DNA from: an uncultured Candidatus Peribacteria bacterium
Lineage (GTDB): Bacteria; Patescibacteriota; Gracilibacteria; Peribacterales; Peribacteraceae
Direction of reading: 5' to 3'
Length of the DNA stretch: 64,000 nucleotides
NCBI GenBank assembly: GCA_964628805.1
Contig: CAZVOK010000004.1
Span: forward strand, 20,163 to 84,162
Below the pieces are notes generated by a model. The model had not been told where the DNA came from. It saw only the letters and a list, made by a program, of their open reading frames with translations, and searched no databases. The position numbers and the translations under genes were made by a program. Positions 5,693 to 64,000 of the stretch are shown one piece after another (the first letter of the stretch is position 1; every line of letters begins with the position of its first letter).

Positions 5693-7453
5693 ATGATACG
5701 CACCCACACCTGCGGCGACCTTCGCCCGGAACACTCAGGCCAGACTGTCACCCTCTGCGGATGGGTACACCGCCGCCGCGACCACGGAGGACTCATGTTC
5801 ATAGATCTTCGCGATCACTACGGCCTCACACAGGTACTTTTTGATCCATCAGATAAAGATGTATTTGCAAAAGCAGAATCTCTGAGATCCGAATGGGTCA
5901 TTAAAATTGTGGGTGAAGTGCAAAAACGTCGTGAAGGTGCGGAGCGTGCCGAGAATCCTACGGGGATGATCGAAGTGGCAGTGAAAGAATTGGAAATTCT
6001 GAGTGAATCCAAGACTCCTCCGTTCGAGATCGATCAAGAGAAAGAAGTGAATGAAGACCTTCGTCTGCAGTACCGATTCTTAGACCTACGTCGTCCACGC
6101 TTGCAAGAAATGATGGTGAAGCGCGATCAGCTTATTACTCACGTACGACAGTACATGCACGGCCAGGGATTCACAGAGGTGCAAACACCGATCCTCGCAA
6201 ACTCGTCCCCAGAAGGAGCACGCGATTACCTGGTTCCAAGTCGCCTGCACCCAGGAATGTTCTACGCCCTTCCGCAGGCGCCTCAGCAGTTTAAGCAGCT
6301 TCTGATGGTGGCAGGACTGGACCGCTACTTTCAGATAGCCCCTTGTTTCCGTGATGAAGACCCACGCGCAGACCGTCATCCAGGAGAATTCTATCAGCTA
6401 GATATGGAAATGAGCTTTGTGACCAAAGACGATGTGTTCGGTGTTATCGAACCACTCATCGCAGAAGTGACGGAGAAATTCAGCGACAAGAAAGTGACGC
6501 ACAGGCCTTTCCCAAGAATTTCCTGGAAAGATGCCTGGAACCGCTTTGGATCCGATAAGCCGGACATGCGCTACGAGATGGAGTTGCAAGATGTGTCTGA
6601 GATTGTGAAGGGCTCCGGCTTCGCAGTCTTTACGGGAGCTATTGAAAATAAAGGAGTAGTAAAAGCACTCCCCGTACAAGGAGGAGCCGAGTTCAGCCGC
6701 AAGGACATTGATGAACTTACCGAGACCGCAAAGATCTACGGCCTTAAGGGCCTTGCGTACATTCTCGTAAAAGAAGGGGAATTGCAGTCCCCCATCGTAA
6801 AATTCTTAGGTGACGATGTGGCCAAGAAGATTGTGGAATCACTGGGGCTCAAAGCAGGCGACGCCGTATTCTTTGCTGCCGATGAATGGATGACCGCCTG
6901 CAAAGGACTTGGTCAGGTTCGCGTGGCTGCCGCAAAGAAGCTCGGGCTTGCCGACCCAAACAAGGCCGCCTGGGTGTGGGTCATCGACTTCCCGATGTAC
7001 GAGTGGAACGAAGACCTGAAGAAAATCGACTTTTCGCACAATCCATTCTCCATGCCACAGGGCGGAATGGACGCGCTCTTGAATCAAGAGCCTACAACGA
7101 TCCTCGCAGATCAGTACGACCTTGCGTGTAACGGCTTTGAGCTCATGAGCGGCGCTATCCGTAACCATAAGCCTGAGGTGATGTACAAAGCCTTCGAGAT
7201 CGCCGGCTACAGCAAAGAAGAAGTAGACGCCCGCTTCGGCGGCATGATCCGCGCATTCCAGTACGGAGCTCCTCCACACGGAGGCTGCGCCCCGGGGCTC
7301 GACCGCCTCATGATGATGCTCTGGGAATGCCCAAGCATCCGCGACATCTACGCCTTCCCCAAAAACGGCAAGGCACAGGATGTGATGATGAACGCACCTT
7401 CGCCGGTAATGGAGAAGCAATTGAAAGAACTGCATATTAAAGTCACCGATTAG
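5693..7453 (+). CDS. aspS: aspartate--tRNA ligase
   Basis: MIRTHTCGDLR...GWVHRRRDHGGLMFIDLRDHYG (OB fold), class II motifs FRDED...PGEFYQLD and GGCAPGLDR. The start is set at the internal ATG 5693, because the upstream ORF part overlaps the opposite-strand lipoprotein gene. Confidence 0.93.
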   Translation: MIRTHTCGDLRPEHSGQTVTLCGWVHRRRDHGGLMFIDLRDHYGLTQVLFDPSDKDVFAKAESLRSEWVIKIVGEVQKRREGAERAENPTGMIEVAVKELEILSESKTPPFEIDQEKEVNEDLRLQYRFLDLRRPRLQEMMVKRDQLITHVRQYMHGQGFTEVQTPILANSSPEGARDYLVPSRLHPGMFYALPQAPQQFKQLLMVAGLDRYFQIAPCFRDEDPRADRHPGEFYQLDMEMSFVTKDDVFGVIEPLIAEVTEKFSDKKVTHRPFPRISWKDAWNRFGSDKPDMRYEMELQDVSEIVKGSGFAVFTGAIENKGVVKALPVQGGAEFSRKDIDELTETAKIYGLKGLAYILVKEGELQSPIVKFLGDDVAKKIVESLGLKAGDAVFFAADEWMTACKGLGQVRVAAAKKLGLADPNKAAWVWVIDFPMYEWNEDLKKIDFSHNPFSMPQGGMDALLNQEPTTILADQYDLACNGFELMSGAIRNHKPEVMYKAFEIAGYSKEEVDARFGGMIRAFQYGAPPHGGCAPGLDRLMMMLWECPSIRDIYAFPKNGKAQDVMMNAPSPVMEKQLKELHIKVTD

Positions 7454-7550
7454 ACTTGAGACTAGAGATTTGAGACATGAGTAATGAACAAAAATTCGAA
7501 AACCAAGAGGCGCAGACACACTCAGGTCTCACGTCTCAAGTCTCATATCT
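7452..7550. repeat. heptad-word hairpin element (GAGACTT word)
   Basis: The left array AGACTTGAGACTAGAGATTTGAGACATGAG faces the right array CTCAGGTCTCACGTCTCAAGTCTCATATCT. Segments 7452-7462 and 7533-7543 are perfectly complementary. Confidence 0.7.
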
Positions 7551-13366: not shown

Positions 13367-13456
13367 CAAAGATCAAAGCAAAGCGGAATATTGAAAGTTT
13401 AAATTTTAACCTTTTTACTTTGCTTTGATTTTTGAATATTGATAGTTGATCTTTAC
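13367..13456. repeat. AT-rich heptad-word hairpin (CAAAG words)
   Basis: 13372-13383 ATCAAAGCAAAG is perfectly complementary to 13418-13429. The element abuts the mfd stop codon. Confidence 0.6.
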
Positions 13457-16827: not shown

Positions 16828-17973
16828 TCAATCCTGCATTCGGAGCGGCATGATCAAATGCAGAAACTCCGGCTCATTCGCCAACTTAAAGACCGCCGGA
16901 TGCATGGCGTCTGTCATTTGCATTTCAAAAGCATCGGCGGACATGTGGCTCAGAAAGTCTAACAAGAAGGATGAGCTAAGCGCAATCTTTCCTTCTTCAC
17001 CCGATACCTCTACGGAAAGTTCTGCTTCATCTTTTCCTATCTGCGTCTGAGGAGTAGAGATCTTCGCTGCGTTTCCATTGAGATGAAAGGTAAGATTATT
17101 ATTGATCTCTTTTGCAAAGTAATGGAGACGCTTCACGGACACTGTAAATTCATTGGTGGCAAACACAGCCTTGGTCTTCACTTCTTTTGGAATGATTTGA
17201 TTGTAATTTGGAAATTTTCCTTCAATGAGTCTGGAGAGTAATCGAACCCGTCCGGCACGGAGTTCTATCTGCTGCTTTCCCAGTAACACTTCCACTTTTG
17301 TAGAATCATTCAGTACTTCACCCTCTTCAGGTTTCTTCTCGCCTTTCTTTCCTGAGAGTACAGACTTTAATTCCTCCAAGATTTTTGCCGGAACAATGCA
17401 CACGAAGTCCTCCCCTGTTCCATCACCAGCAATGGTGTACTCCGATAAACGGTAGCTATCTGTAGCCACGAGCACCATTTTGCCTTTCTCGCGAGAGATA
17501 TACACACCGGAAAGTACAGGGCGAAGGCTTGTTTTTGCGGATGCGAATGTCACTAAGTGAAGTGCACGCAAAAGGGGAGCTGCATCTAATGTAAAAGAGT
17601 TTTCTGTTTCCACTCTACTGATAGTCGGATAATCATTGGCGCTTTCTCCGGCAATCATCGTCTTTGCATGGGCGGATGTACATTTCAGCTGTGTTCCCTC
17701 TATCACCTCCAGAGTTACTTCCGGATCATTATTGTACTGAGCAAAGTTCACAATGGCCTTTGCTGGAATAGTGATGGACCCTTCACTTTCTACTATTCCC
17801 GTAAAGCTTGTGACTACGCTCAGCTCTAAATCTGTAGCACTGAGCGTGCAAGTATTTCCTTTCACTTCAAATAAAATATTTCCCAGGATTGGAAGAGCTT
17901 GTTGACTTCCGATCGCTCGGCTCGCGAGGTGGAGAGATTCCAAGAGCTCTGAAGTATTGCAGGAAAGTTTCAT
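16828..17973 (-). CDS. dnaN: DNA polymerase III beta sliding clamp
   Basis: 381 aa. MKLSCNTSELLESLHLASRAI...LPILGNILFEV is a typical DnaN N-terminus, with three-domain length and a C-terminal LIMPLRM-like tail. Confidence 0.9.
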   Translation of the reverse strand: MKLSCNTSELLESLHLASRAIGSQQALPILGNILFEVKGNTCTLSATDLELSVVTSFTGIVESEGSITIPAKAIVNFAQYNNDPEVTLEVIEGTQLKCTSAHAKTMIAGESANDYPTISRVETENSFTLDAAPLLRALHLVTFASAKTSLRPVLSGVYISREKGKMVLVATDSYRLSEYTIAGDGTGEDFVCIVPAKILEELKSVLSGKKGEKKPEEGEVLNDSTKVEVLLGKQQIELRAGRVRLLSRLIEGKFPNYNQIIPKEVKTKAVFATNEFTVSVKRLHYFAKEINNNLTFHLNGNAAKISTPQTQIGKDEAELSVEVSGEEGKIALSSSFLLDFLSHMSADAFEMQMTDAMHPAVFKLANEPEFLHLIMPLRMQD

Positions 17974-18400
17974 ATAATTTTTTACCTAATGAATAAATAA
18001 AATAATTAATTTATATAATTAGTCATCATAATGATATCTTCCTTAAAGGGATGAATTCTACTCTTATTCTGTGGAAATCGAAGGGTAAGTTTTTTGGGTT
18101 TTGGCTTCCACTACAGCAATCGTGTTTTTTCGTACAAATAAGTTGTGTGGGAGGGGTGTGGATAACTCGTGGAAAACCACCCCCTCAGAGGAGGAAAGGG
18201 TGAATTTTATGATTTTGGCTTACTGTAGCTAAAAGGTGAAATTTCCTGTGGAGACATGTGGATAACTTGGGAGGAACCCTCCAAAAAGTTATCCACAGGC
18301 AGTGTGGATAACTCGGCCATCCAAAGGGGTACCAAAAGTTATCCACAGGGGGTGTGGATAAGTATGCTTTTGATCTTTTTGGCCATTGAAAGCCAAGTGG
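17974..18400. other. candidate chromosomal replication origin (oriC): AT-rich unwinding stretch plus DnaA-box cluster
   Basis: 17974-18050 is visibly very AT-rich by eye. Six perfect TTATCCACA/TGTGGATAA boxes follow (see next feature). The region is directly upstream of dnaN. Confidence 0.75.
18157..18361. promoter_or_regulatory. six perfect DnaA boxes
   Basis: TGTGGATAA at 18157, 18257, 18303 and 18353. TTATCCACA at 18289 and 18339. Two convergent pairs have the form AAAAGTTATCCACAGGnnGTGTGGATAA. Confidence 0.85.
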
Positions 18401-18527
18401 ATATCAAATATCAAACTTCAAAGTTACAAACATCAAAGAAATTCTAAAGATCAAAGATTAAATTTTAATCTTTCTCAATTATTTAACATTTCTTTGACAT
18501 TTAATGTTTGTAACTTTGATCTTTACC
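18401..18527. repeat. AT-rich heptad-word long hairpin (ATATCAA/CAAAG words)
   Basis: 18418-18433 TCAAAGTTACAAACAT is perfectly complementary to 18504-18519. The flanks are 7-nt periodic arrays. Confidence 0.65.
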
Positions 18528-19824: not shown

Positions 19825-19874
19825 TGAGGCGTATTGTAGAGGAATACGTGCCTCGCCACTAGGAGCCTTTGAGA

Positions 19875-19960
19875 GGGATTAGGGTTAGGGATTGGGGATT
19901 GGGACATTGGAACCTTTTTTATTTTGAAAATACTAATCCCCAACTCCAATCCCCAATCCC
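19875..19960. repeat. G-rich/C-rich hairpin element (GGGATT/GGGTTA words)
   Basis: 19888-19902 GGGATTGGGGATTGG is perfectly complementary to 19946-19960. The right arm encodes the last residues (GLGIGVGD) of ORF 19933..20727. Confidence 0.7.
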
Positions 19961-20727
19961 TTTAATCTCTTCTTCAATAAATTCCCCGCCACATCCGGTG
20001 GAGCGGCAATCAGCACTGTCGAAGGCTTAATTGCGAGTAGCGACCCTGTGGACGGAAAATTCTTCCCGGTTGGCTGCAGGAGTACCAAGGTATCTGCTTT
20101 CAAATTTTCTCCGGAAGCCAAGAGGGCTCTTTCTGCATCTTCATCCAGTGAAGGTAAAAATAGAATCGAATGTTTATGGTGTGTGGCCCGTAGAACAATG
20201 GATGTGTTTTTCAGTTCACTCTGGGTCACTTCTTTCCCCAGAAGGCTCGTCCGTGGCCAGAGGGTATGGATCATGGTTCCATCCCCTAGGTCGAGTGTCA
20301 TAGCGGGGTGAGGTGTAATGATGGCGAGCTTCTTCTGATGCACGGATGCCAGGAAATTCTCGTAGGCGCCGATGGGCTGCGTGACTCCGATCATGAGGAC
20401 TCCGCCAACTTGGAATCGATCGAGTAAGAATGGAAATGATACGACGGTGTCGTTGGTGGGCTTGGTGAGTACCAGTAGATCAATCACTCTGGAGAAAAAT
20501 GGCAGCTCCTTTGCGAGGGATTCCAGCACGGATAGATCCCCGCCTCCATCTATGAGGATGTGCTTTCCCGAAGGCGTCGTCAGTAATACAGACCGTCCTT
20601 TATCAGCCTCAAGAACTTTTACGCGCATGGTTCCGTCGGGCATTTTTTGCAGCTCTTTGAATGTAGCGACATTGAAAATCAGAAGAACTGCGGTGAGCCC
20701 GAGCCAGAGCTTTAGAGAGAGGGACAT
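19933..20727 (-). CDS. ComEC C-terminal-like metallo-beta-lactamase-fold protein with substituted metal-binding motifs
   Basis: An N-terminal TM is followed by VLEADKGRSVLLTTPSGKHILIDGG and IDLLVLTKPTNDTV. These align to the ComEC/MBL motifs DVGQGDA and THPHxDH, but the His/Asp ligands are lost. Confidence 0.55.
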   Translation of the reverse strand: MSLSLKLWLGLTAVLLIFNVATFKELQKMPDGTMRVKVLEADKGRSVLLTTPSGKHILIDGGGDLSVLESLAKELPFFSRVIDLLVLTKPTNDTVVSFPFLLDRFQVGGVLMIGVTQPIGAYENFLASVHQKKLAIITPHPAMTLDLGDGTMIHTLWPRTSLLGKEVTQSELKNTSIVLRATHHKHSILFLPSLDEDAERALLASGENLKADTLVLLQPTGKNFPSTGSLLAIKPSTVLIAAPPDVAGNLLKKRLKGLGIGVGD

Positions 20728-25529: not shown

Positions 25530-26705
25530 ATGTCTGGCACGGAATCTTCCGAAGGCCTCATCACACTTCCGCGCCTGATCGATTGTCATGTGCACTTCCG
25601 CGAGCCGGGGCTCGAACATAAGGCGACGATGAAGAGTGAATCGGACTCCGCATTTTTTGGTGGAGTAGGAACTGTATGCGAAATGCCGAATACAAATCCG
25701 GCCACAGTGACCGTGGCAGCTTTGGCAGACAAAGTACGCAGAGCCAGCGAGATCGGGAATTGTGATATCAGATTTTTCTTTGGCATTACTCAGGCAGAAC
25801 ATCTTCATGCATTTAGGGATCTGATGACATCCGATTCCGAAGAAATGCAGCGACTGCGAAAGCGATGCTGCGGGGTGAAGTTGTACTTGGATCATTCCAC
25901 GGGAAATCAGAAAGTGGATGGTGGAATTGTGGAAGAGATATTTCAGGCGTGTGCGGAGCTGAATGTTGTATTGGTCGCTCACTGCGAAGATGCGGACATG
26001 AATGAAAAAATGTCGAAGGAGATTACGGGCTCTGATGTTGCGCTGCATTCAGAGAGACGACCTGCGGAGTCTGAGGCAAAGGCTATTGAATTTGCTTTAG
26101 GATTAGCTAAAAAGCACGGCACGCATCTGCACGTTGCGCACCTTTCTACCAAGCAGGGAATCGAGCTTGTACGTGAGGCAAAGAAAGATGGATTGAATGT
26201 GACGTGTGAAGTGACGCCGCATCATTTGTTTTTAACTGTTGAAGATTACGAGACTCTTGGAACTTTGGCGAAGATGAATCCGCCACTGCGAAGTAGTGAA
26301 CATCGTGATGCTCTGTGGGAGGGAATTGCGGATGGAACTGTGGATTGTGTGTCGACGGATCATGCGCCGCACACATTGGAAGAAAAACAATCAGGTGAGC
26401 CTTTGAATGCGCCAAGCGGTGTGCCGGGAGTGGAGACGATGGTGCCTCTGTTGTTGTCTGTCGCAAATAATCATTGGCCTAATCCCCAATCCCCAATCCC
26501 AAATCCCAAACTAACGTATTCTGATATTCAGCGACTGTGCTTCGAGAATCCGAATCGCATTTTCAATTTAGGAAAAAGTGGAGATGAGAAAATCACCATT
26601 GATCCGAATGTCGAATGGACCATCAAAGGCAGCGAATTGCATTCGAAATGCGGGTGGACGCCGTTTGAGGGGTGGACAGTCCGGGGGAAAATTTTGCAGA
26701 AATAA
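25530..26705 (+). CDS. pyrC: dihydroorotase (amidohydrolase family)
   Basis: DCHVHFREPG, VAHCED and STDHAPH motifs. The gene is immediately downstream of pyrB. Confidence 0.88.
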   Translation: MSGTESSEGLITLPRLIDCHVHFREPGLEHKATMKSESDSAFFGGVGTVCEMPNTNPATVTVAALADKVRRASEIGNCDIRFFFGITQAEHLHAFRDLMTSDSEEMQRLRKRCCGVKLYLDHSTGNQKVDGGIVEEIFQACAELNVVLVAHCEDADMNEKMSKEITGSDVALHSERRPAESEAKAIEFALGLAKKHGTHLHVAHLSTKQGIELVREAKKDGLNVTCEVTPHHLFLTVEDYETLGTLAKMNPPLRSSEHRDALWEGIADGTVDCVSTDHAPHTLEEKQSGEPLNAPSGVPGVETMVPLLLSVANNHWPNPQSPIPNPKLTYSDIQRLCFENPNRIFNLGKSGDEKITIDPNVEWTIKGSELHSKCGWTPFEGWTVRGKILQK

Positions 26706-29567: not shown

Positions 29568-31601
29568 ATGGACTCCACTGTCCACACAGGTTTCACAAAG
29601 GCCTCGCACGACGTGTCGCTCGTTTCCCAGAGTTTTCTGTCTGAGGAGAAAGAGCGTGCCTTTTTGCTGCTGCAGATTCACGCCGAACCGCGTGATGCGA
29701 AGGCGCTGGAGGAAGAATGCATTTCCATTGTGAAGCATGCGCTCCTGCAAACAGAAGGAGAAGCGTGGCACAGGCTCGATGGCACACTGAAAGAATTGAA
29801 CGGCCTCTTCAAAGGATTTTTGATTTCTCACGCGGTGCAGGATGTCCACGCCATCGTGTCTATCAGTGACAAAGAAGGAAATCTGCACGTGTCTCACGCG
29901 GGCAGGGGTGAGGCGTATCTCATCCGAAACGGTGGCTGCAGCCAAATTACCGAGTATGTACGCGGTAAGCCGTCACCCATGTTTGTGCACATCGCCAGCG
30001 GTTCTCTGGAGGCGGGTGATGTGCTCATCTTCTCCACACAAAGACTGCTTCGCACCCTCACGCCGGCACAACTCGCGCAGATGTCTCCACGCGAGTCGCA
30101 CCTGGTGCACGACATCATTGCGACTCTGGAAACAGAAAAAGAAATGGCGTCTGTAGGTACGTTGCACCTCTCTGCAAAGAGAGCTGCAGTAAGTAGGTTT
30201 GCAGAGGATGAAGACCTAGATGAAGCCCCGGTCCGCAGCAGATCTGCGTACCGCGAACTTCCATCGCGCAGGCGCACGCAGGGTGGTGGCAGTTGGTCCA
30301 TCCCATCCTTCGATACCGTCCGCGAATATGTGATGCCGGTAGTGGCAGGCGTGGGAAAGCTTAGTAAGCAGGGAGCGTCTCTCAGTAAAAAAGGAATGGG
30401 TTCCGCATCATCCGGCATGCAGTGGGTGCAGGTTGTGCAGGATCGCTTCACGCTGTTCCTGGCAGATTTGCGCCACCCGGAGCGCAAAAAGCGTGCACAT
30501 CTTCTGCTCCTGGCAGGGGCTTTGGCTGCATTCCTCATCATTTGGATGACCGTGAGGCTTGCCACCAGCACGCAGCGCAGCAAGAGCCGCGCAGAGCTAG
30601 GGGAACTCATGCAGCAGATTGAGGCCGATATCCGCACTGCGGAGAATCGTCGCCTCACGGGTGATAGCGAAGGGGCGAATGCTATTTTGGACAGAGCGGA
30701 ATTGCAGTCTAAAGAAATCATCAATAACGACAGCGGCCTCTTCCGCTCCGAAGCCCTGAATCTCTTGGATCGTGTACAGGCCAAGAAAGAGGAGATCAAT
30801 AACGTAGTGCGCATTTCTCCGCGCATGCTCGTGAACCTCAGCACCAAGGAGCCGGACATTGCCGCTCAAGGGATGATCGGCATTGCCGATGGAGAGTTCA
30901 CCGTGTTCGACAAAAAGAATTCGTACCACGTGGTGCTCAATAGCGTGGAAGAAGGCCGAGCGATCTCCGAAGAAGATCTCATCGCCGATGGTGCGAACTT
31001 CCCACGCTACGCCGCTCAGGCATTTTTGACTTCGGGTAATAGCCTTGTGGAAGTAAAGGAAGGCATTTTGGAATCCATGAAGACCGACGATGCCAATGGC
31101 TGGGTGACCGGGAAAGATTTGGAGACGTACCTAAGGAACCTGTACGTACTTAGCAGCGACAACAAAATCTACAAGTACGAGCGCCTGAATAATCGTTACA
31201 GTTCATCGGTACTGTACAACGTGAACGGGGACCTCAGCGGTGCCCTGGACATGGCGATCGACGGAAATGTGTACGTGCTGAAAGACAATGGAACCGTGGT
31301 GAAGCTCCTCCGCGGCGAAGCGCAGACATTCGGCATTCATCATGCACCAAGTAACCTTCTCACCGATGCGGCCAAGCTCTACAAGTTGCCCGATGGAAAC
31401 TTCTACTTCCTGGATCCCGTGAAGAACCGCGTGATTGTAACATCCGACGGCGGCTCCGCCGGAGATTCATCGTACGTGCGTCAGTATGTCATCGAGGGCG
31501 ATCAGATCGGTAAATTGCAGGATTTGTACGTGGATCCGGAGGAATCTCATATTTACGTGATGGATGAGAAGAAGGTGTATGTGGTGGATATCATTCGATA
31601 A
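29568..31601 (+). CDS. large membrane-spanning hypothetical protein (N-terminal PPM/SpoIIE-like region?, central TM, C-terminal repeat/propeller-like region)
   Basis: 677-aa ORF. The N-terminal part has weak PP2C-like character (VSHAGRGEAYLIRNG, GDVLIFSTQ). One TM lies near aa 310-330. Confidence 0.5.
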   Translation: MDSTVHTGFTKASHDVSLVSQSFLSEEKERAFLLLQIHAEPRDAKALEEECISIVKHALLQTEGEAWHRLDGTLKELNGLFKGFLISHAVQDVHAIVSISDKEGNLHVSHAGRGEAYLIRNGGCSQITEYVRGKPSPMFVHIASGSLEAGDVLIFSTQRLLRTLTPAQLAQMSPRESHLVHDIIATLETEKEMASVGTLHLSAKRAAVSRFAEDEDLDEAPVRSRSAYRELPSRRRTQGGGSWSIPSFDTVREYVMPVVAGVGKLSKQGASLSKKGMGSASSGMQWVQVVQDRFTLFLADLRHPERKKRAHLLLLAGALAAFLIIWMTVRLATSTQRSKSRAELGELMQQIEADIRTAENRRLTGDSEGANAILDRAELQSKEIINNDSGLFRSEALNLLDRVQAKKEEINNVVRISPRMLVNLSTKEPDIAAQGMIGIADGEFTVFDKKNSYHVVLNSVEEGRAISEEDLIADGANFPRYAAQAFLTSGNSLVEVKEGILESMKTDDANGWVTGKDLETYLRNLYVLSSDNKIYKYERLNNRYSSSVLYNVNGDLSGALDMAIDGNVYVLKDNGTVVKLLRGEAQTFGIHHAPSNLLTDAAKLYKLPDGNFYFLDPVKNRVIVTSDGGSAGDSSYVRQYVIEGDQIGKLQDLYVDPEESHIYVMDEKKVYVVDIIR

Positions 31602-31680
31602 ATATCAAAGAAAAGCTAAAAGATAAATTTTTTAAAGTTTAATTTTCTCTATTTAGCTTTTCTTTGAGCTTTGATATTTG
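31601..31680. repeat. AT-rich heptad-word hairpin
   Basis: 31601-31611 pairs with 31670-31680 (11 bp perfect), and 31612-31621 pairs with 31653-31662 (10 bp perfect). The element begins at the last base of the stop codon of ORF 29568..31601. Confidence 0.6.
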
Positions 31681-34736: not shown

Positions 34737-34850
34737 GCTTTGAATAAAGGGATTTGAAGTATGAATTATGGGTTGAAGCAAAAATCACTACCAATCCCTT
34801 ACTCCATCATTCTGAGCCAAGAATTCTCACTCACTTGGCATTTTCATGAG

Positions 34851-34892
34851 TTATCCACAGAGTTTTCCACACTTTTCCACATTTAATCCACA
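34851..34892 (+). promoter_or_regulatory. phased array of four DnaA-box-like 9-mers upstream of the response regulator/pilus operon
   Basis: TTATCCACA (34851), TTTTCCACA (34863), TTTTCCACA (34873) and TAATCCACA (34884). All share one orientation with 10-12 nt spacing. An extended -10-like TGCTACAAT lies at 34936-34944. Confidence 0.55.
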
Positions 34893-39520: not shown

Positions 39521-39523
39521 TGT

Positions 39524-39629
39524 GGAATACTAGAGTACTGGAATACTGGAATAATGGGGGAAGTAGGAATTGTGATTAGGATTTTTGTGTTGTTTCCTAG
39601 TATTCTAGTACTCCAGTATTCCAGTACTC
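39524..39629. repeat. heptad/octad-word hairpin element (GGAATACT/GAGTACT words)
   Basis: 39533-39550 GAGTACTGGAATACTGGA is perfectly complementary to 39612-39629. The element starts 4 nt after the pilC stop. Confidence 0.75.
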
Positions 39630-39638
39630 TTTAATTAG

Positions 39639-45365: not shown

Positions 45366-46001
45366 ATGCCATCTTCTTTCTCTCATCGGCCAGGTGTCAC
45401 ATTTGTAGAGCTACTGATGTTCATGGCAGTGATCGCCATTGTGGCCGGGGTAGTACTGCCACTGCTTTTTGCAGCTACAGAAAATCGTCTTCTGCAGGAA
45501 TCCATTTCTGTCGTAGAACACACAGGCACGCAGATACTGGAAAATTTTGATAAACACATTCGTCCCGCACAGCAGATTTTGGATCCCACTCCCGGCGGAC
45601 AAGGAACGGTGGTGGCAGTGCAGACGGGTTCCGATGACACCTCTCCTACTATTTTCGGACTCGCCAGCGGATCGATTATTGTGATTCGCGGTACTACGCG
45701 TACTGTCATCAGCTCTCCCCAGGTGGCAGTATCCAACTTCCGTGTGCGCAATACGTCTACTTCAGCGAACAGCCAAAGCCTGCAAATTTCTTTCACGCTC
45801 TCGCGCACTATCCGCCTGGAAGCGCCGCACATGTACTCGCAGGATTTTAAAACTCTCATTCCTTTGTACAGAAATGATGCGCCCACATCGGCGGAGTGCA
45901 CCTGTACCGTCCCCGGATGTATTGATAGTGAACATTACGCGTGGCAGGTATGCGTGAGTGGCGTGTGCCAGAATGCGACGGATGCGATGATGTGTCTTTG
46001 A
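45366..46001 (+). CDS. prepilin-like protein (paralog of the N-terminal domain of 44196..45350) with a Cys-rich tail
   Basis: HRPG|VTFVELLMFMAVIAIV. The shared segments ENRxxQESIS and ISFTLSRT match the preceding gene. Confidence 0.7.
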   Translation: MPSSFSHRPGVTFVELLMFMAVIAIVAGVVLPLLFAATENRLLQESISVVEHTGTQILENFDKHIRPAQQILDPTPGGQGTVVAVQTGSDDTSPTIFGLASGSIIVIRGTTRTVISSPQVAVSNFRVRNTSTSANSQSLQISFTLSRTIRLEAPHMYSQDFKTLIPLYRNDAPTSAECTCTVPGCIDSEHYAWQVCVSGVCQNATDAMMCL

Positions 46002-46099
46002 GAATTGAGAATTGAGAATTGAGTTTAGTTTGGTTCACATTTTCTGATTATTTTCAATTGTGGGGTACTCAGATCTCATATCTCACGTCTCAAGTCTCC
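46000..46099. repeat. heptad-word element (GAGAATT x3 ... TCTCACGTCTCAAGTCTC)
   Basis: GAGAATTGAGAATTGAGAATTGAG lies at 46000-46023. The 18-mer at 46081-46098 is identical to 7527-7544. Confidence 0.7.
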
Positions 46100-46199
46100 C
46101 GTTCGTCAAGAGAAACGGGGCTTCCACTCTGCAAATCCTTGTTATACTGCATTCCGCTTTCGTGGACGTGTTCCACTTCCCTTCTTTCCTCATTTCTTT

Positions 46200-49006: not shown

Positions 49007-49027
49007 GGTTTTCGCAGTTAAGAAGAA

Positions 49028-49124
49028 AGTTCCAAGTTCCAAGTGCGAAGTTCCAAGTATAGTGCTTCTTTTTTTAAAGAAGAATTCCTTCGTTGGAACT
49101 TAGAACTTAGAACTTCGAACTTAA
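49028..49124. repeat. heptad-word hairpin element (AAGTTCC words)
   Basis: The left array 49028-49060 and right array 49091-49124 are complementary at about 26 of 31 positions. Confidence 0.7.
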
Positions 49125-49147
49125 AAAAGCGCCATAAGCGCTTTTTT
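49123..49147. terminator. bidirectional intrinsic terminator between the kinase gene and rnpB
   Basis: AAAAAAGCGC-CATAA-GCGCTTTTTT. Confidence 0.75.
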
Positions 49148-49150
49148 AGT

Positions 49151-49626
49151 CTGCTCCTCTGTACGCCGGATTCTGTCCTCTCCTCTCCTTGCGGAGATTC
49201 GAGTGGCAACCATCTCTCTGGGATAGTAGTTACCTACTACCTAAGACCGTGAGGTCATGCGGAGGGGTAGAGGGAGCAATGAAACCATTGCTGATTCCTT
49301 CCACCCAAATCCTCCTTGCACCGCCATAAGTTTGCCCTCCTTCGCTCCTTGCTTGCTTCGCTCGCAATGAGCTACGGAGGGCAGGCCTCCCTTAGCTCTT
49401 TGAGTGGAAGAAAGTAAGGAACGAAGGACCCGGTTCCCGGGCGTTTCAGCTCCACCTTCCTTTGGTCCCCTTGCGGAGATGAAGTCGTGCGGAGATCGTC
49501 TCTGTGGCACTGGTTCTACCGAGCCTTTCAAATATATGACCCGGTGACGGGCGTTACCCGCATGGCGTTCCTAAGGTGTCCGGACGTTCCTCCCACGCTA
49601 AGCGGGGGCGGTTGCCCAAGGAGCAG
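49151..49626 (-). ncRNA. rnpB: RNase P RNA (bacterial type A-like, about 476 nt, with extra insertions)
   Basis: On the minus strand: 5' P1 CTGCTCC pairs with 3' GGAGCAG. P4 strands are GGAGGAACGTCCGGAC and ACAGAATCCGGCGTA. GGGTAACGCCC and GTGCCACAGAGA are also present. Confidence 0.85.
49335..49385. repeat. copy a of the bipartite motif, embedded in rnpB
   Basis: CCCTCC TTCGCTC ... GAGCTAC GGAGGG CAGG (plus-strand reading). Confidence 0.5.
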
Positions 49627-49632
49627 ATCTGT

Positions 49633-51657: not shown

Positions 51658-51752
51658 GGGTAAGGTAGGTACAGTACGTAAGGTATGTACGGTAGGGAAA
51701 ATCAAAATTTTCATCCCTACCTTACCTACTGTACCCACCTTACGTACCTTAC
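51658..51752. repeat. word hairpin element (GTAAGGTA/GTACGGTA words) in a divergent intergenic region
   Basis: Arrays of permuted words sit on both arms. GGTAGGGA at 51690-51697 pairs with TCCCTACC at 51713-51720, and the arm ends are complementary. Confidence 0.6.
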
Positions 51753-55942: not shown

Positions 55943-55980
55943 GGAATACTAGAGTACTGGAGTACTGGAATACTAGGAAT
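55943..55980. repeat. single-arm copy of the GGAATACT/GAGTACT word array
   Basis: GGAATACTAGAGTACTGGA is identical to 39524-39542. Confidence 0.7.
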
Positions 55981-57435: not shown

Positions 57436-57607
57436 GATGATGAGGGGTTAGGGATTGGGGATTCGGGATTGGGATTTTTCTCCTTAGCCCGAAGCGACCA
57501 TCTCGCAGTGTAGCGACATAGTCAGATTCAAATAAATCAAATTGTAGGGTTATTATATACTTTTCTTTGCTAAGTGCAATGGCTTCGGCAAGAATAAGGC
57601 ACACTTT

Positions 57608-61381: not shown

Positions 61382-61494
61382 GAGGTAAGGAAGATGCGGA
61401 AAGTACGGAAGGCAAGGGATTTGTAGAGGATACGTTGGCTAAAAATGACGAAATTCCCTACCGTACCTTCCTTACCCGCCTTACATTCCTTACC
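61382..61494. repeat. word hairpin element (GGTAAGGAA/GTACGGAAGG words)
   Basis: 61382-61391 AGGTAAGGAA is perfectly complementary to 61485-61494. Internal words are partly complementary. Confidence 0.6.
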
Positions 61495-61550
61495 TTGTCC
61501 TGCTATTATTAGCACCTAGCATTCCTGAGTGACAACTCCCGCAACTCCCC

Positions 61551-64000
61551 ATGGCAATCCTCGATACTCTCAATAAGCTCCTCGGCGATCCCAATAAAAA
61601 AGAACTCAAGAAGCTCTGGCCTGTGGTGAAGGAGGTTCGTAAGGCTGCCGAGGCTCCGCACATTCGTGCTCTTACGCTGGAGACACTTCCGCGTCAGACA
61701 GAAGAATTGAAAGTGAAAGTGCAGTCCGGCCAGAAGACGCTCGATGAGATTTTGCCGGAAGCCTTTGCTACCGCCATCCGCGCGTGTGAGCTTCTGCAAG
61801 GAAAGACGATGAAGATTGGAAATCAGGAATTTACGTGGAACATGGTGCCGTTTGATGTGCAGATCCTCGGCGGCATCGCGCTGCACAGAGGGAACATCGC
61901 GGAAATGAAAACGGGAGAAGGAAAGACACTGGTGTGTACGCTGCCTGCGTACCTCAATGCTTTAATGGGCAAAGGTGTACACGTAGTGACTGTGAACGAT
62001 TACCTCGCCAAGCGCGATGCGCAGTGGATGGGGCTTCTGTACAAAGCACTCGGACTTACGGTTGGAACCATCGTGCATGAGTTGGAGCCGGATCAGCGTA
62101 AGCAGGAGTACGCAGCAGACATCACCTACGGAACCAACAGCGAATTTGGATTCGATTACCTGCGCGATAACATGGCAACGTCGCTCGAGCGCCAGGTGCA
62201 GCGCGGGCTCTATTACGCCATCGTGGATGAAGTGGATAGCATTCTCGTAGATGAAGCGCGCACGCCGCTCATCATCAGTCAGCCTGCGAATGAATCGACG
62301 GATAAATACGTGCAGTACGCAGGACTTGTCTCGAACTTGCAGGAAAATGTGCACTTTAACTTAGATGAAAAGCAGCGTGCAGCCACTCTCACCGATGAAG
62401 GTATTAAAAAGATGGAGCAGCTACTGGGTGTGGAGAACATCTACACAGAGAAGGGATTTGAAACCGTGCATCACTTGGAGCAGGCGCTGAAGGCGCACGG
62501 AATCTTCAAGAAAGACGTGGATTACGTGGTGAAGGACGGCGAGATCATCATCGTGGATGAATTCACAGGCCGCCTCATGCCGGGACGCAGGTACAGTCAT
62601 GGATTGCACCAGGCGATTGAGGCTAAAGAAGGAGTCACTGTGCAGCGCGAGAGCCGCACGCTTGCCACTATCACCTTCCAGAACTACTTCCGCCTGTTTA
62701 AGAAACTTGCGGGTATGACGGGAACGGCGAAAACAGAGGAAGAAGAATTTGAATCGATTTATAAACTGCGCGTGATTGTAATCCCCACACACAGAAATGT
62801 GCAGCGCCAGGACAAGGCCGATGCCATCTACCGCACGATGAGTGCGAAGTTCAAGGCGGTTGCAAAAATTGCGAAAGAAAAACATGCTGTGGGACAGCCG
62901 GTGCTCATCGGTACTACGAGCATTGAAAAGTCTGAAGTGATGAGCCTCTTGCTCGATCAAGAAGGTGTGCCGCATCAGGTGCTGAACGCCAAGCAGCACG
63001 AGAAAGAAGCCGAAATTGTGGCGAATGCAGGCCAAAAAGGCACTGTGACGATTGCCACCAACATGGCGGGCCGTGGAACGGACATTAAGCTGGGAGAAGG
63101 CGTCACGGAGCTCGGCGGTCTTGCCATCCTCGGTACCGAGCGCCACGAAGCACGACGCATCGATAATCAGCTTCGCGGTCGCGCGGGACGCCAGGGAGAC
63201 CCGGGAGAGAGTCAGTTCTTTGTGTCCATGGAAGATGAACTGATGCGTCTTTTCGGGGGTGATCGTTTGAAATCCATGATGGAAAGATTAAATGTTCCGG
63301 ATGATGTGCCGCTGGAAAATGGCATCGTGTCACGAAGCATTGAAAGTGCGCAGAAGAAAGTAGAAGGAAGAAACTTCGACATCCGCCGCCACGTGCTGCA
63401 GTACGACAACGTGATGAACCAACACCGTGAGATTATCTATAAGAGGAGAAATAAGATTTTGGAGAAGATTGCGGAGGCGAGGGAGACTCGAGACGTGAGA
63501 CTTGAGACTAGAGAAAATGAGAATGAGACACTCGAATCTCAAGTCTCACGTCTCGAGTCTTTGCCATTGCATGAAGAAATCCTCAAAGCTCTCCGCTCGG
63601 AGGTTGCCGCTCTCGTTTCTTTGTACACGCAGGATACGGATCCGGACCTGTGGAACTTCAATGAAATTGCCGAGAACCTCATGGTGTATCACATGGATCT
63701 TTCGAAGGTTATTTCTCGTGATCACTTGGCTACTCTCACAGAGCGCGAGGAACTGCAGAAGCACTTGGAGGACATGATGGTGAAGTTCTACGAGGATAAG
63801 TGTGCGCAGCATGACATCGATACCGTGGCTCGTGCCGAGAGCATCGTGACGCTCAGAAGTATTGATTCCCACTGGATGGATCATATCGACGATATGTCTC
63901 ACCTGCGTGAACAGGTGGCCTTCTCCGGCTACGCCCAGCGCGATCCTCTCATTGAATATCAGGATCAAGGTTTCCAGCGGTTCCAGCAGCTGATCGCCAC
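61551..64000 (+). CDS. secA: preprotein translocase ATPase SecA (3' end beyond the window)
   Basis: From ATG 61551 the frame is open to the window end. Motifs: MKTGEGKTLV, VTVNDYLAKRD, VDEVDSILVDEARTPLIIS, TNMAGRGTDI, RGRAGRQGDPG. The gene is missing from the ORF track because no stop codon falls in the window. Confidence 0.93.
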   Translation, partial: MAILDTLNKLLGDPNKKELKKLWPVVKEVRKAAEAPHIRALTLETLPRQTEELKVKVQSGQKTLDEILPEAFATAIRACELLQGKTMKIGNQEFTWNMVPFDVQILGGIALHRGNIAEMKTGEGKTLVCTLPAYLNALMGKGVHVVTVNDYLAKRDAQWMGLLYKALGLTVGTIVHELEPDQRKQEYAADITYGTNSEFGFDYLRDNMATSLERQVQRGLYYAIVDEVDSILVDEARTPLIISQPANESTDKYVQYAGLVSNLQENVHFNLDEKQRAATLTDEGIKKMEQLLGVENIYTEKGFETVHHLEQALKAHGIFKKDVDYVVKDGEIIIVDEFTGRLMPGRRYSHGLHQAIEAKEGVTVQRESRTLATITFQNYFRLFKKLAGMTGTAKTEEEEFESIYKLRVIVIPTHRNVQRQDKADAIYRTMSAKFKAVAKIAKEKHAVGQPVLIGTTSIEKSEVMSLLLDQEGVPHQVLNAKQHEKEAEIVANAGQKGTVTIATNMAGRGTDIKLGEGVTELGGLAILGTERHEARRIDNQLRGRAGRQGDPGESQFFVSMEDELMRLFGGDRLKSMMERLNVPDDVPLENGIVSRSIESAQKKVEGRNFDIRRHVLQYDNVMNQHREIIYKRRNKILEKIAEARETRDVRLETRENENETLESQVSRLESLPLHEEILKALRSEVAALVSLYTQDTDPDLWNFNEIAENLMVYHMDLSKVISRDHLATLTEREELQKHLEDMMVKFYEDKCAQHDIDTVARAESIVTLRSIDSHWMDHIDDMSHLREQVAFSGYAQRDPLIEYQDQGFQRFQQLIA
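63484..63560. repeat. perfect 24-bp inverted repeat (GAGAC words) inside the secA reading frame
   Basis: 63484-63507 AGACTCGAGACGTGAGACTTGAGA is the exact reverse complement of 63537-63560. The spacer is 29 nt. Confidence 0.85.

Follow-up and report, generated by a model that had tools for sequence, protein, structure and literature searches.

How does a perfect 24-bp hairpin come to lie inside the coding region of secA, and what has kept it there? The question is raised by a 64,000-nt stretch of DNA from an uncultured Candidatus Peribacteria bacterium (contig CAZVOK010000004.1, positions 20,163 to 84,162), which we call the window and in whose coordinates all positions are given unless another locus is named. 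The secA gene near the end of the window contains, in frame, an element built from tandem seven-nucleotide words. A perfect hairpin is unexpected at this place, because SecA is essential and highly conserved and because the genomes of candidate phyla radiation (CPR) bacteria are small and streamlined. The analysis favours the view, with a probability of roughly 0.6, that the element is a tolerated and inherited repeat-hairpin passenger, which is under some constraint at the nucleotide level.

The hairpin element and its place in SecA

The two arms of the element (63484-63507 and 63537-63560) are exact reverse complements over 24 nt, with 29 nt between them. When two mismatches are allowed the arms grow to 30 nt (63484-63513 and 63531-63560; 93%). 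The whole element, 63483-63560, reads GAGACTC GAGACGT GAGACTT GAGACTA GAGAAAATGAGAATGAGACACTC GAATCTC AAGTCTC ACGTCTC GAGTCT, and Tandem Repeats Finder (TRF) calls both arms as arrays with a period of 7. The features of the gene and of the element are as follows.

61551 to 64000, + strand: secA gene, 5' 816 codons, continuing past the window end (open frame, MAILDTLNKLL...)
63468 to 63566, + strand: hypervariable SecA linker, residues 640-672 (IAEAR, the 26-residue element, LP), delimited by alignment to Bacillus subtilis SecA
63483 to 63560, + strand: in-frame word-hairpin element, 78 nt, 26 codons, peptide ETRDVRLETRENENETLESQVSRLES
63483 to 63514, + strand: left arm, tandem heptamers GAGACTC GAGACGT GAGACTT GAGACTA GAGA (TRF period 7, 4.6 copies)
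63515 to 63530, + strand: loop AAATGAGAATGAGACA, degenerate GAGA words; the intergenic family members have loops that are longer by about 22 nt
63531 to 63560, + strand: right arm, inverted words CTC GAATCTC AAGTCTC ACGTCTC GAGTCT (TRF period 7, 3.4 copies; 93% complementary to the left arm)

When all anti-diagonals of the 64-kb window were compared, the secA element came out as the top ungapped stem, with a score of 24; no stem with a score of 16 or more was present in five Markov-shuffled windows. The RNA from 63470 to 63575 (106 nt) is predicted to fold with -59.4 kcal/mol, compared with -28.1 ± 3.7 kcal/mol for dinucleotide shuffles (z = -8.5); none of the 200 shuffles was as good. The fold of the same segment as DNA gave z = -8.1. 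The motif GAGACNNGAGAC has seven matches in the window, where 0.10 are expected, and all seven are in the secA element or in two intergenic elements at 7452-7550 and 45998-46102. The secA hairpin is real and far beyond chance. Its length of 78 nt is a multiple of three, and it is open in one of the six frames, which is the frame that secA uses. Neither of its two intergenic relatives has an open frame among the six.

The gene that carries the hairpin is intact, because the SecA sequence of the window matches a full-length protein that ends in a zinc-binding tail: it is identical, over 816 of 816 residues, to the first part of a 935-aa NCBI protein (P0122) with the usual C-terminal CPCGSGKKYKKCHG. 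Pfam SecA domains are listed for its homologues. The best matches are SecAs from Candidatus Peribacteria and Peregrinibacteria, which belong to the CPR; one cluster is 93% identical, while all others are at most 78% identical.

Alignment with SecA from B. subtilis (e.g. 1m6n) pairs residues 534-639 of the window protein with 515-620, and residues 673 onward with 623 onward. The linker of 33 aa stands where the B. subtilis protein has 2 residues (621-622), which is an excess of about 31 aa. The only other repeat near the element is a 12-nt repeat (63453-63476); it encodes KILEKIAE, a segment that is largely conserved across Peribacteria SecAs. We take the linker site to be the point where the helical scaffold domain (HSD), with its long helix, meets the helical wing domain (HWD). 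In an AlphaFold2 model, built on an alignment of 102 sequences (mean predicted local distance difference test score, pLDDT, 80), the scaffold helix (591-654) runs unbroken into the linker; it is followed by a loop (655-661), a short helix (662-668) and, from residue 674, the wing domain. The pLDDT over residues 651-670 is about 62. The model, which is only moderately reliable in this part, suggests that the linker projects from the tip of the scaffold helix and is partly helical.

A first-pass annotation of this DNA, made from the letters alone, had reported exactly complementary 24-bp arms 29 nt apart, had given the reading frame and peptide of the element and had expected a very stable stem in the mRNA. 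The sequence, the stem scan and the predicted fold bear this out, and the frame is open from 61551 to the window end. The same annotation placed the element after the conserved REIIYKRRNKIL segment, in agreement with the alignment to B. subtilis SecA. The insertion of about 25-30 aa in a variable loop, which it proposed, corresponds to an in-frame segment within the excess of about 31 aa, in a linker of variable length.

Conservation of the element and turnover at its site

The closest relative of the window organism is represented by two metagenome assemblies from the Joint Genome Institute (L001 and L002), in which secA is 93% identical to that of the window at the amino acid level and 81% identical at the nucleotide level. 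Both carry the element at the same codons, in frame and without gaps, with 10 differences from the window. The fact that two assemblies from different samples have the element at the same codons excludes a misassembly, about which the first-pass annotation had warned. It also means that the element predates the split of the two organisms. The other finding that the annotation thought could undo its reading was the same peptide encoded by non-palindromic DNA in close relatives. What the relative has is the same element with a weaker stem: 20 of the 24 core pairs are kept, and the linker folds with -34 kcal/mol in comparison with -54 kcal/mol in the window.

All ten differences between the window and L001 are in the loop, in the spacers of the words or at a core base beside a spacer; the GAGA/TCTC tetranucleotides are intact. 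Among codons that specify the same residue in both sequences, 1 of 21 in the element differs silently, versus 259 of 741 in the rest of secA (Fisher p = 0.002). Amino acid differences, on the other hand, affect 5 of the 26 codons of the element versus 49 of 790 elsewhere in the gene (p = 0.02). When secA was scanned in sliding segments of 26 codons, 13 of 790 segments had two or fewer third-position differences, and 12 of these 13 start 0-11 codons upstream of the element. Because silent changes are few and amino acid changes are many, it is apparently the nucleic acid that is constrained. From this sequence comparison the element seems to show the opposite of what constraint on a coding sequence normally produces, in that its nucleotides are preserved while its peptide changes.

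A similar pattern was found in a second, independent pair of sequences (L084 and L085; 80% amino acid and 74% nucleotide identity), which keeps a hairpin of TCGGAC words at the same SecA site. The hairpins at this site fold with -46.9 and -39.8 kcal/mol, and third-position differences occur in 6 of 24 codons in the hairpin versus 443 of 896 elsewhere (p = 0.02). Intergenic arrays can also be compared with the closest relative. In a 9-mer hairpin upstream of secA the CCTTAC cores are kept and the 3-nt spacers are largely changed, in both arms. A single-arm octamer array of GGAATACT and AGAGTACT words (55943-55980) differs from its counterpart in L001 (5459-5491) by 1 base in the alignment shown; its words are those of a full hairpin at 39523-39630, and the adjacent intergenic DNA is barely alignable with that of the relative. 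In these alignments the orthologous intergenic arrays are better conserved than their surroundings.

A manual count from the alignment of the window with L001 assigned two of the differences in the secA element to the left arm and six to the right arm. This asymmetry fits a left-to-right gene conversion as a possible cause of the perfect stem, although the count is too small to carry this conclusion.

The linker itself is variable. In an alignment of 120 Peribacteria SecAs the segment between KILEKIAE and PLHxEIL measures from about 10 to 60 aa, and many of the linker peptides resemble translated word repeats. Word arrays or hairpins that are unrelated to the window element fill the linker in L003, L006, L010, L013, L018, L024, L083 and L206. 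These include GCGATGA x4 followed by AAAGCTC x4 in L003, where the arrays are not complementary; a single array in L018 and in L006; 9-mers with a fold of -38.7 kcal/mol in L083; and GAGANNC words with an 11-bp stem in L206. Two proteins (P0015 and P0009) have GAGAC-like peptides at the same SecA site, and a PFDSAQG-type peptide, which comes from a different small element, occurs at the linker in three separate clades (P0004, P0056, P0104). About half of the loci examined have a short linker without structure. When the SecA proteins are placed in neighbour-joining order, linker content is common to very close relatives only. One close pair, L207 (~1960-2001) and L208, shows a clean filled/empty alignment gap of 42 nt at this site; the extra 42 nt in L207 consist of about 28 nt of new sequence (PFDSAQD) and a second copy of about 13 nt of the flank. 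The first-pass annotation had treated the secA element as a single insertion. The site is in fact a hot spot throughout the class, and the repeats that fill it differ from lineage to lineage.

A second hot spot in SecA is the C-terminal linker just before the zinc-binding tail, where five Peribacteria genomes have in-frame heptamer arrays, for example AGCGATC x5.1, which encodes GAISDQRSAISDQ. The positions of the arrays in the respective loci are:

L006, 4007-4037: C-terminal-linker heptamer array
L007, 3990-4025: C-terminal-linker heptamer array
L013, 3977-3998: C-terminal-linker heptamer array
L021, 4001-4029: C-terminal-linker heptamer array
L025, 4066-4093: C-terminal-linker heptamer array

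Word hairpins in the window and arrays in Peribacteria

The window holds at least 11 word hairpins. Their arms consist of tandem words of 7-9 nt, with about four copies per arm, and their loops range from a few to about 60 nt.

7452-7550, + strand: GAGAC words; the first word gives the TAG stop of the aspartyl-tRNA synthetase gene
13367-13434: CAAAG words
18406-18524: CAAAG-like words
19872-19963: GGGATT words
31600-31672: irregular words (CAAAG, AAAGC) without a clear period
39523-39630: GGAATACT 8-mers
45998-46102, + strand: TTGAGAA x3.7 in the left arm, NNNTCTC in the right arm; the first word gives the TGA stop of the upstream open reading frame (ORF)
49027-49123: AAGTTCC words
51660-51752: 9-mers
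61383-61495: 9-mers, just upstream of secA
63483-63560, + strand: GAGAC words, the secA copy

The placement of these hairpins was judged on a rough gene map with a coding density of 90%, which leaves about 10% of the window to intergenic gaps. Ten of the 11 hairpins are in, or at the edge of, such gaps; the secA copy is the exception. Within the coding 90% of the window, word repeats are limited to the secA hairpin and a lone array in pyrC. Six intergenic hairpins (those at 7.4, 31.6, 39.5, 46.0, 49.0 and 61.4 kb) begin about 0-20 nt from a stop codon. In two cases the first word of the array supplies the stop codon, TAG in TAGACTT (7451-7453) and TGA in TTGAGAA (45999-46001); arrays may therefore create or replace gene ends.

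The elements in secA, at 7.4 kb and at 46.0 kb align in register, each with four GAGA-type words, a loop, an ACTC junction and four NNNTCTC words. The three copies have a mean column identity of 70%, and their loops differ. This alignment supports the earlier proposal that the secA element belongs to the same word family as the intergenic sequences at 7452-7550 and 46000-46099. Another family, made of AAGTTCC words, is dispersed: in addition to the copy at 49 kb it has two copies in L001 (16799-16898 and 18807-18912), and the loop is conserved.

No known RNA family was found at the word hairpins by a search of Rfam, which returned only RNase P RNA and two tRNAs from the window. We rejected the idea that the secA hairpin is an intrinsic (rho-independent) terminator: its loop is large (17-29 nt), and directly after the stem comes TTTGCC and no U-tract. 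A consensus terminator scan of 45-64 kb flagged conventional terminators and none of the word hairpins.

Some other features of the window were noted as well. The gene for RNase P RNA, rnpB, is at 49146-49627 on the - strand (Rfam RF00010, 143 bits). It ends 23 nt from the AAGTTCC hairpin at 49027-49123, on which its 3' end and that of a histidine-kinase gene converge. The array in the dihydroorotase (pyrC-like) gene (ORF 25530-26705) is AATCCCC x4 at 26481-26507, in frame; it coincides with an insertion of 11 residues (NHWPNPQSPIP) relative to the dihydroorotase domain of human CAD. An inverted pair of TTATCCACA repeats, which resemble DnaA boxes, is located at 18289-18361, directly upstream of dnaN (16828-17973, - strand; Pfam beta-clamp domains), and more DnaA-box-like repeats are at 34848-34881. 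Because the boxes upstream of dnaN sit at the minimum of the cumulative GC skew (~18-20 kb), this region is probably the replication origin.

The density of arrays was estimated with TRF in 327 kb of Peribacteria DNA, comprising the window and the fetched loci. This sample contains 99 period-7 arrays, or 3.0 per 10 kb, with a median of 4.3 copies and 30 nt. In an equal length of DNA from around secA in other bacteria there are 23 of them (0.7 per 10 kb). Some Peribacteria loci also have telomere-like hexamer arrays (L019 4237-4290, GGTTAG x9; L021 6612-6640, CCCTAA x4.8; L008 4250-4277, AGGGTT x4.7); those of L019 and L008 are about 90 nt downstream of the secA stop codon. In other cases two arrays stand side by side and are not complementary, such as AATGGAT x4.4 beside ATTATCA x4.4 (L019 6489-6519 and 6539-6569) and AGCGATG x4.4 beside CTCAAAG x4.3 (L003 3337-3403). 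Because some of the paired arrays are not complementary, the trait of the class may be a pair of arrays of about 31 nt rather than a hairpin.

Origin of the element and relation to known repeats

If the element is a tolerated passenger, its history could be as follows. A copy of a family member would have entered the SecA linker or would have replaced an older repeat there. This copy would have passed the filter against stop codons and frame shifts, and it could have survived because the residues that it adds would project from a solvent-exposed tip of SecA as a hydrophilic and in part helical segment, and would leave the ATPase and the SecY-binding parts of the protein undisturbed. The common ancestor of the window organism and its closest known relative would already have had the element. 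Since their split the peptide would have drifted while the nucleotide words were kept, probably by the same constraint that acts on the intergenic copies; this could be a hairpin or array which acts in RNA or DNA, or a homogenisation between the arms. Ribosomes would have to unwind a stem of about -55 kcal/mol, and the effect on the expression of secA is probably mild.

Several observations weigh against this history. The signal of nucleotide constraint comes from two sequence pairs with small counts. The stem is perfect in the window and mismatched at 4 of 24 positions in the closest relative; if pairing is under selection, this selection is therefore not strict. In the 11 stems G-U and A-C mismatches are about equally frequent (20 vs 19) and show no strand bias, so that they do not tell pairing in RNA from pairing in DNA. 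No target-site duplication was seen in the flanks of the secA element, which were inspected by eye only, and a transposase was not searched for. The site varies so much that none of the close relatives offers a clean empty counterpart to this element. Two more distant lineages (L206, L025) have words of the GAGA type at this position of SecA. Finally, a metagenome scan for four GAGAC words (loci L086-L165) found at least 120 stretches, so that GAGACNN arrays of four or more words are common in contigs that are mostly unrelated. Among the matches listed, some arrays are 10-17 words long, and in 8 of 80 an inverted partner follows downstream.

The last two observations are the reason why growth of the element in place has to be considered, even though we regard this origin as unlikely. 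In such a process slippage of heptamers would expand a seed word, and an inverted duplication by template switching would make the second arm. The linker would then be low-complexity DNA and its likeness to the intergenic GAGAC hairpins would be convergent; this is conceivable because GAGAC/GTCTC words encode hydrophilic residues that are tolerated (E, T, R, D / V, S, L) and need not contain stop codons. Growth in place would account for the GAGA-type arrays in lineages that are only about 75% identical (L206 and also L025), for the arrays with non-complementary halves (L003) or without a partner (L018, L006) at the site, for the wide distribution of four-word GAGAC arrays in unrelated metagenome contigs and for gains and losses of words between orthologous elements. 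It does not readily explain why the secA element agrees with the intergenic elements at 7.4 and 46.0 kb in the number of words (4 + 4), in register and in the ACTC junction. Furthermore, other families are plainly dispersed with conserved loops (AAGTTCC, 3 copies at different loci), and filled/empty pairs reveal real insertions at the SecA site.

A hairpin that works as a cis-acting RNA in the secA message, be it as a ribosome pause at a domain boundary, as a site for RNase III or a barrier to exonucleases, or as an internal attenuator, has an even smaller chance of being the explanation. It would agree with the unusual conservation of silent sites within the element in two independent lineages, with the strong stem that L084 and L085 share across 26% nucleotide divergence, and with intergenic arrays such as that at 55.9 kb, which are far better conserved than their surroundings. 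However, most Peribacteria SecAs have no hairpin at this site, and 4 positions of the 24-bp core are mismatched in the closest relative. No compensatory double substitutions were seen in the stems, the G-U mismatches lack a strand bias, there is no U-tract and a simple terminator scan does not flag the element. Very improbable, in our judgement, is a domestication at the protein level, in which a charged helical extension of the scaffold helix has acquired a role of its own, e.g. in contacting a partner. The AlphaFold model does prolong the scaffold helix by about 15 residues into the linker, and the insertion has been kept since the split from the closest relative. Yet amino acid replacement is about three times that in the rest of SecA (5/26 vs 49/790), the ratio of nonsynonymous to synonymous rates (dN/dS) is near or above 1, the peptide has no counterpart in sister lineages, and the confidence of the model is moderate to low over residues 651-670. 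The first-pass annotation had left a choice between a domesticated and a tolerated copy; the data support a tolerated one, while the faster evolution of the peptide and the moderate AlphaFold confidence speak against domestication. That the hairpin is an artefact of assembly or amplification, such as a fold-back chimera, is hardly credible. This idea has in its favour only the general fact that palindromes can arise as artefacts; the same element, which differs at 10 positions and remains in frame, occupies the same codons in two other assemblies of different samples, and the window SecA agrees with the deposited 935-aa NCBI protein over all 816 residues.

Among known repeats, the Rickettsia palindromic elements (RPEs; Ogata et al. 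2000) are the closest to the secA element in behaviour. According to PMC10969869 they are inserted in frame into housekeeping genes, measure about 100-150 bp and have a conserved family consensus and a conserved encoded peptide; nearly half of the members of some families are intragenic. Both systems appear to consist of small palindromes from dispersed families, located in frame in unrelated housekeeping genes with preservation of the open frame, and in both the host protein acquires an additional stretch of peptide and presumably retains its fold and function. The Peribacteria elements differ in that their arms are low-complexity heptamer arrays and conservation of the peptide does not extend past the closest relative. 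In the window 2 of about 12 elements are inside genes, and the host is a CPR bacterium and not a member of the Rickettsiales.

In anatomy the element is closest to the heptameric simple-sequence repeats of Xanthomonas and Nostoc, which are of the GGGNATC type. PMC4692102 attributes their preference for four units to a G-quadruplex, and describes them as located near stop codons between co-oriented ORFs, as rare in coding DNA and as often arranged in convergent pairs that are capable of forming a stem-loop; it also mentions the STRR heptamers of cyanobacteria. The unit of 7 nt and the preference for about four units are shared with the Peribacteria arrays (median 4.3 copies, 30 nt), as are the intergenic position between co-oriented ORFs and near stop codons, the scarcity in coding DNA and the inverted pairs with stem-loop potential. 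The units in Xanthomonas and Nostoc are G-rich, in contrast to GAGACNN and most other Peribacteria words (AAGTTCC, CAAAG..., TCGGAC), which have no G-tracts; the G-quadruplex explanation cannot therefore apply to the latter. Only the AGGGATT/AATCCCC elements at 19874-19960, 26481-26507 and 57451-57476 resemble the GGGNATC type in the window. A further difference is that many different words coexist in one Peribacteria genome. The passages of PMC4692102 consulted make no mention of a recurrent in-frame occupation of one protein linker.

REP / REPIN sequences and MITEs (PMC3733652, PMC3116915, PMC10969869) are short extragenic palindromes that form dispersed families at gene ends and are occasionally intragenic, and in these respects they are similar to the word hairpins. 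The arms of the secA element differ from both types in being internally periodic. By eye they begin with (G)AGAC and not with GTAG or CGTC as in REP / REPIN sequences, which are imperfect palindromes of 20-40 bp associated with a RAYT transposase; RAYT genes were not searched for. In MITEs a target-site duplication flanks the terminal inverted repeats, and there is an autonomous transposon to which they are related; no direct duplication was seen by eye at the secA element, whereas the element of L207 at the same site has a duplicated flank of about 13 nt. The TAACTGA heptamers of Beggiatoaceae and cyanobacteria are intergenic and occur in 2-6 copies, and the stop codons in the word restrict their placement (PMC4679880). 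They resemble the Peribacteria arrays in their concentration in intergenic DNA and in the limits that stops within the word set on the placement relative to genes. They differ in having one favoured word, which is almost always repeated directly and is found upstream of starts; the Peribacteria arrays have many words, in inverted pairs downstream of stops. In the founding paper on Peribacteria genomes the only repeats mentioned are short ones near the origin (PMC4736985), and nothing specific on word hairpins of this kind in CPR bacteria, Peregrinibacteria or Peribacteria was found in the literature searched.

Together, these results indicate that the first interpretation of the secA element was essentially right. 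It becomes wider, in that repeats of a class-wide kind have occupied this hot spot recurrently, and narrower, in that the evidence is for a tolerated copy and not for a domesticated one. For the annotation of genomes this means that such segments in genes should not be taken for misassemblies or frameshifts. The reversed constraint, with silent sites kept and a drifting peptide, provides a simple computational handle on the action of repeats in RNA or DNA, and the class-wide occurrence of four-unit heptamer arrays without G-tracts challenges the G-quadruplex explanation for the repeats of Xanthomonas and Nostoc. For the bacteria themselves the finding means that protein linkers are shaped by repeat DNA and not by point mutation alone, and that one permissive site is reused repeatedly.

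A more far-reaching idea, which we offer tentatively and hold to be rather doubtful, is that the class Peribacteria carries an undescribed repeat system of paired word arrays of about 30 nt, which are kept by selection on the nucleic acid and colonise permissive linkers. Such arrays may consist of about 4.3 copies of a 7-9-nt word, with many words per genome, and may be present at gene ends as well as inside genes. The linkers which may have been colonised repeatedly, with turnover within them, are the junction of the scaffold and wing domains of SecA, the C-terminal linker of SecA and a loop of dihydroorotase. If this is true, the system would steadily supply very small genomes with new linker peptides, and the hairpin in secA would be a working cis element and not a mere passenger.

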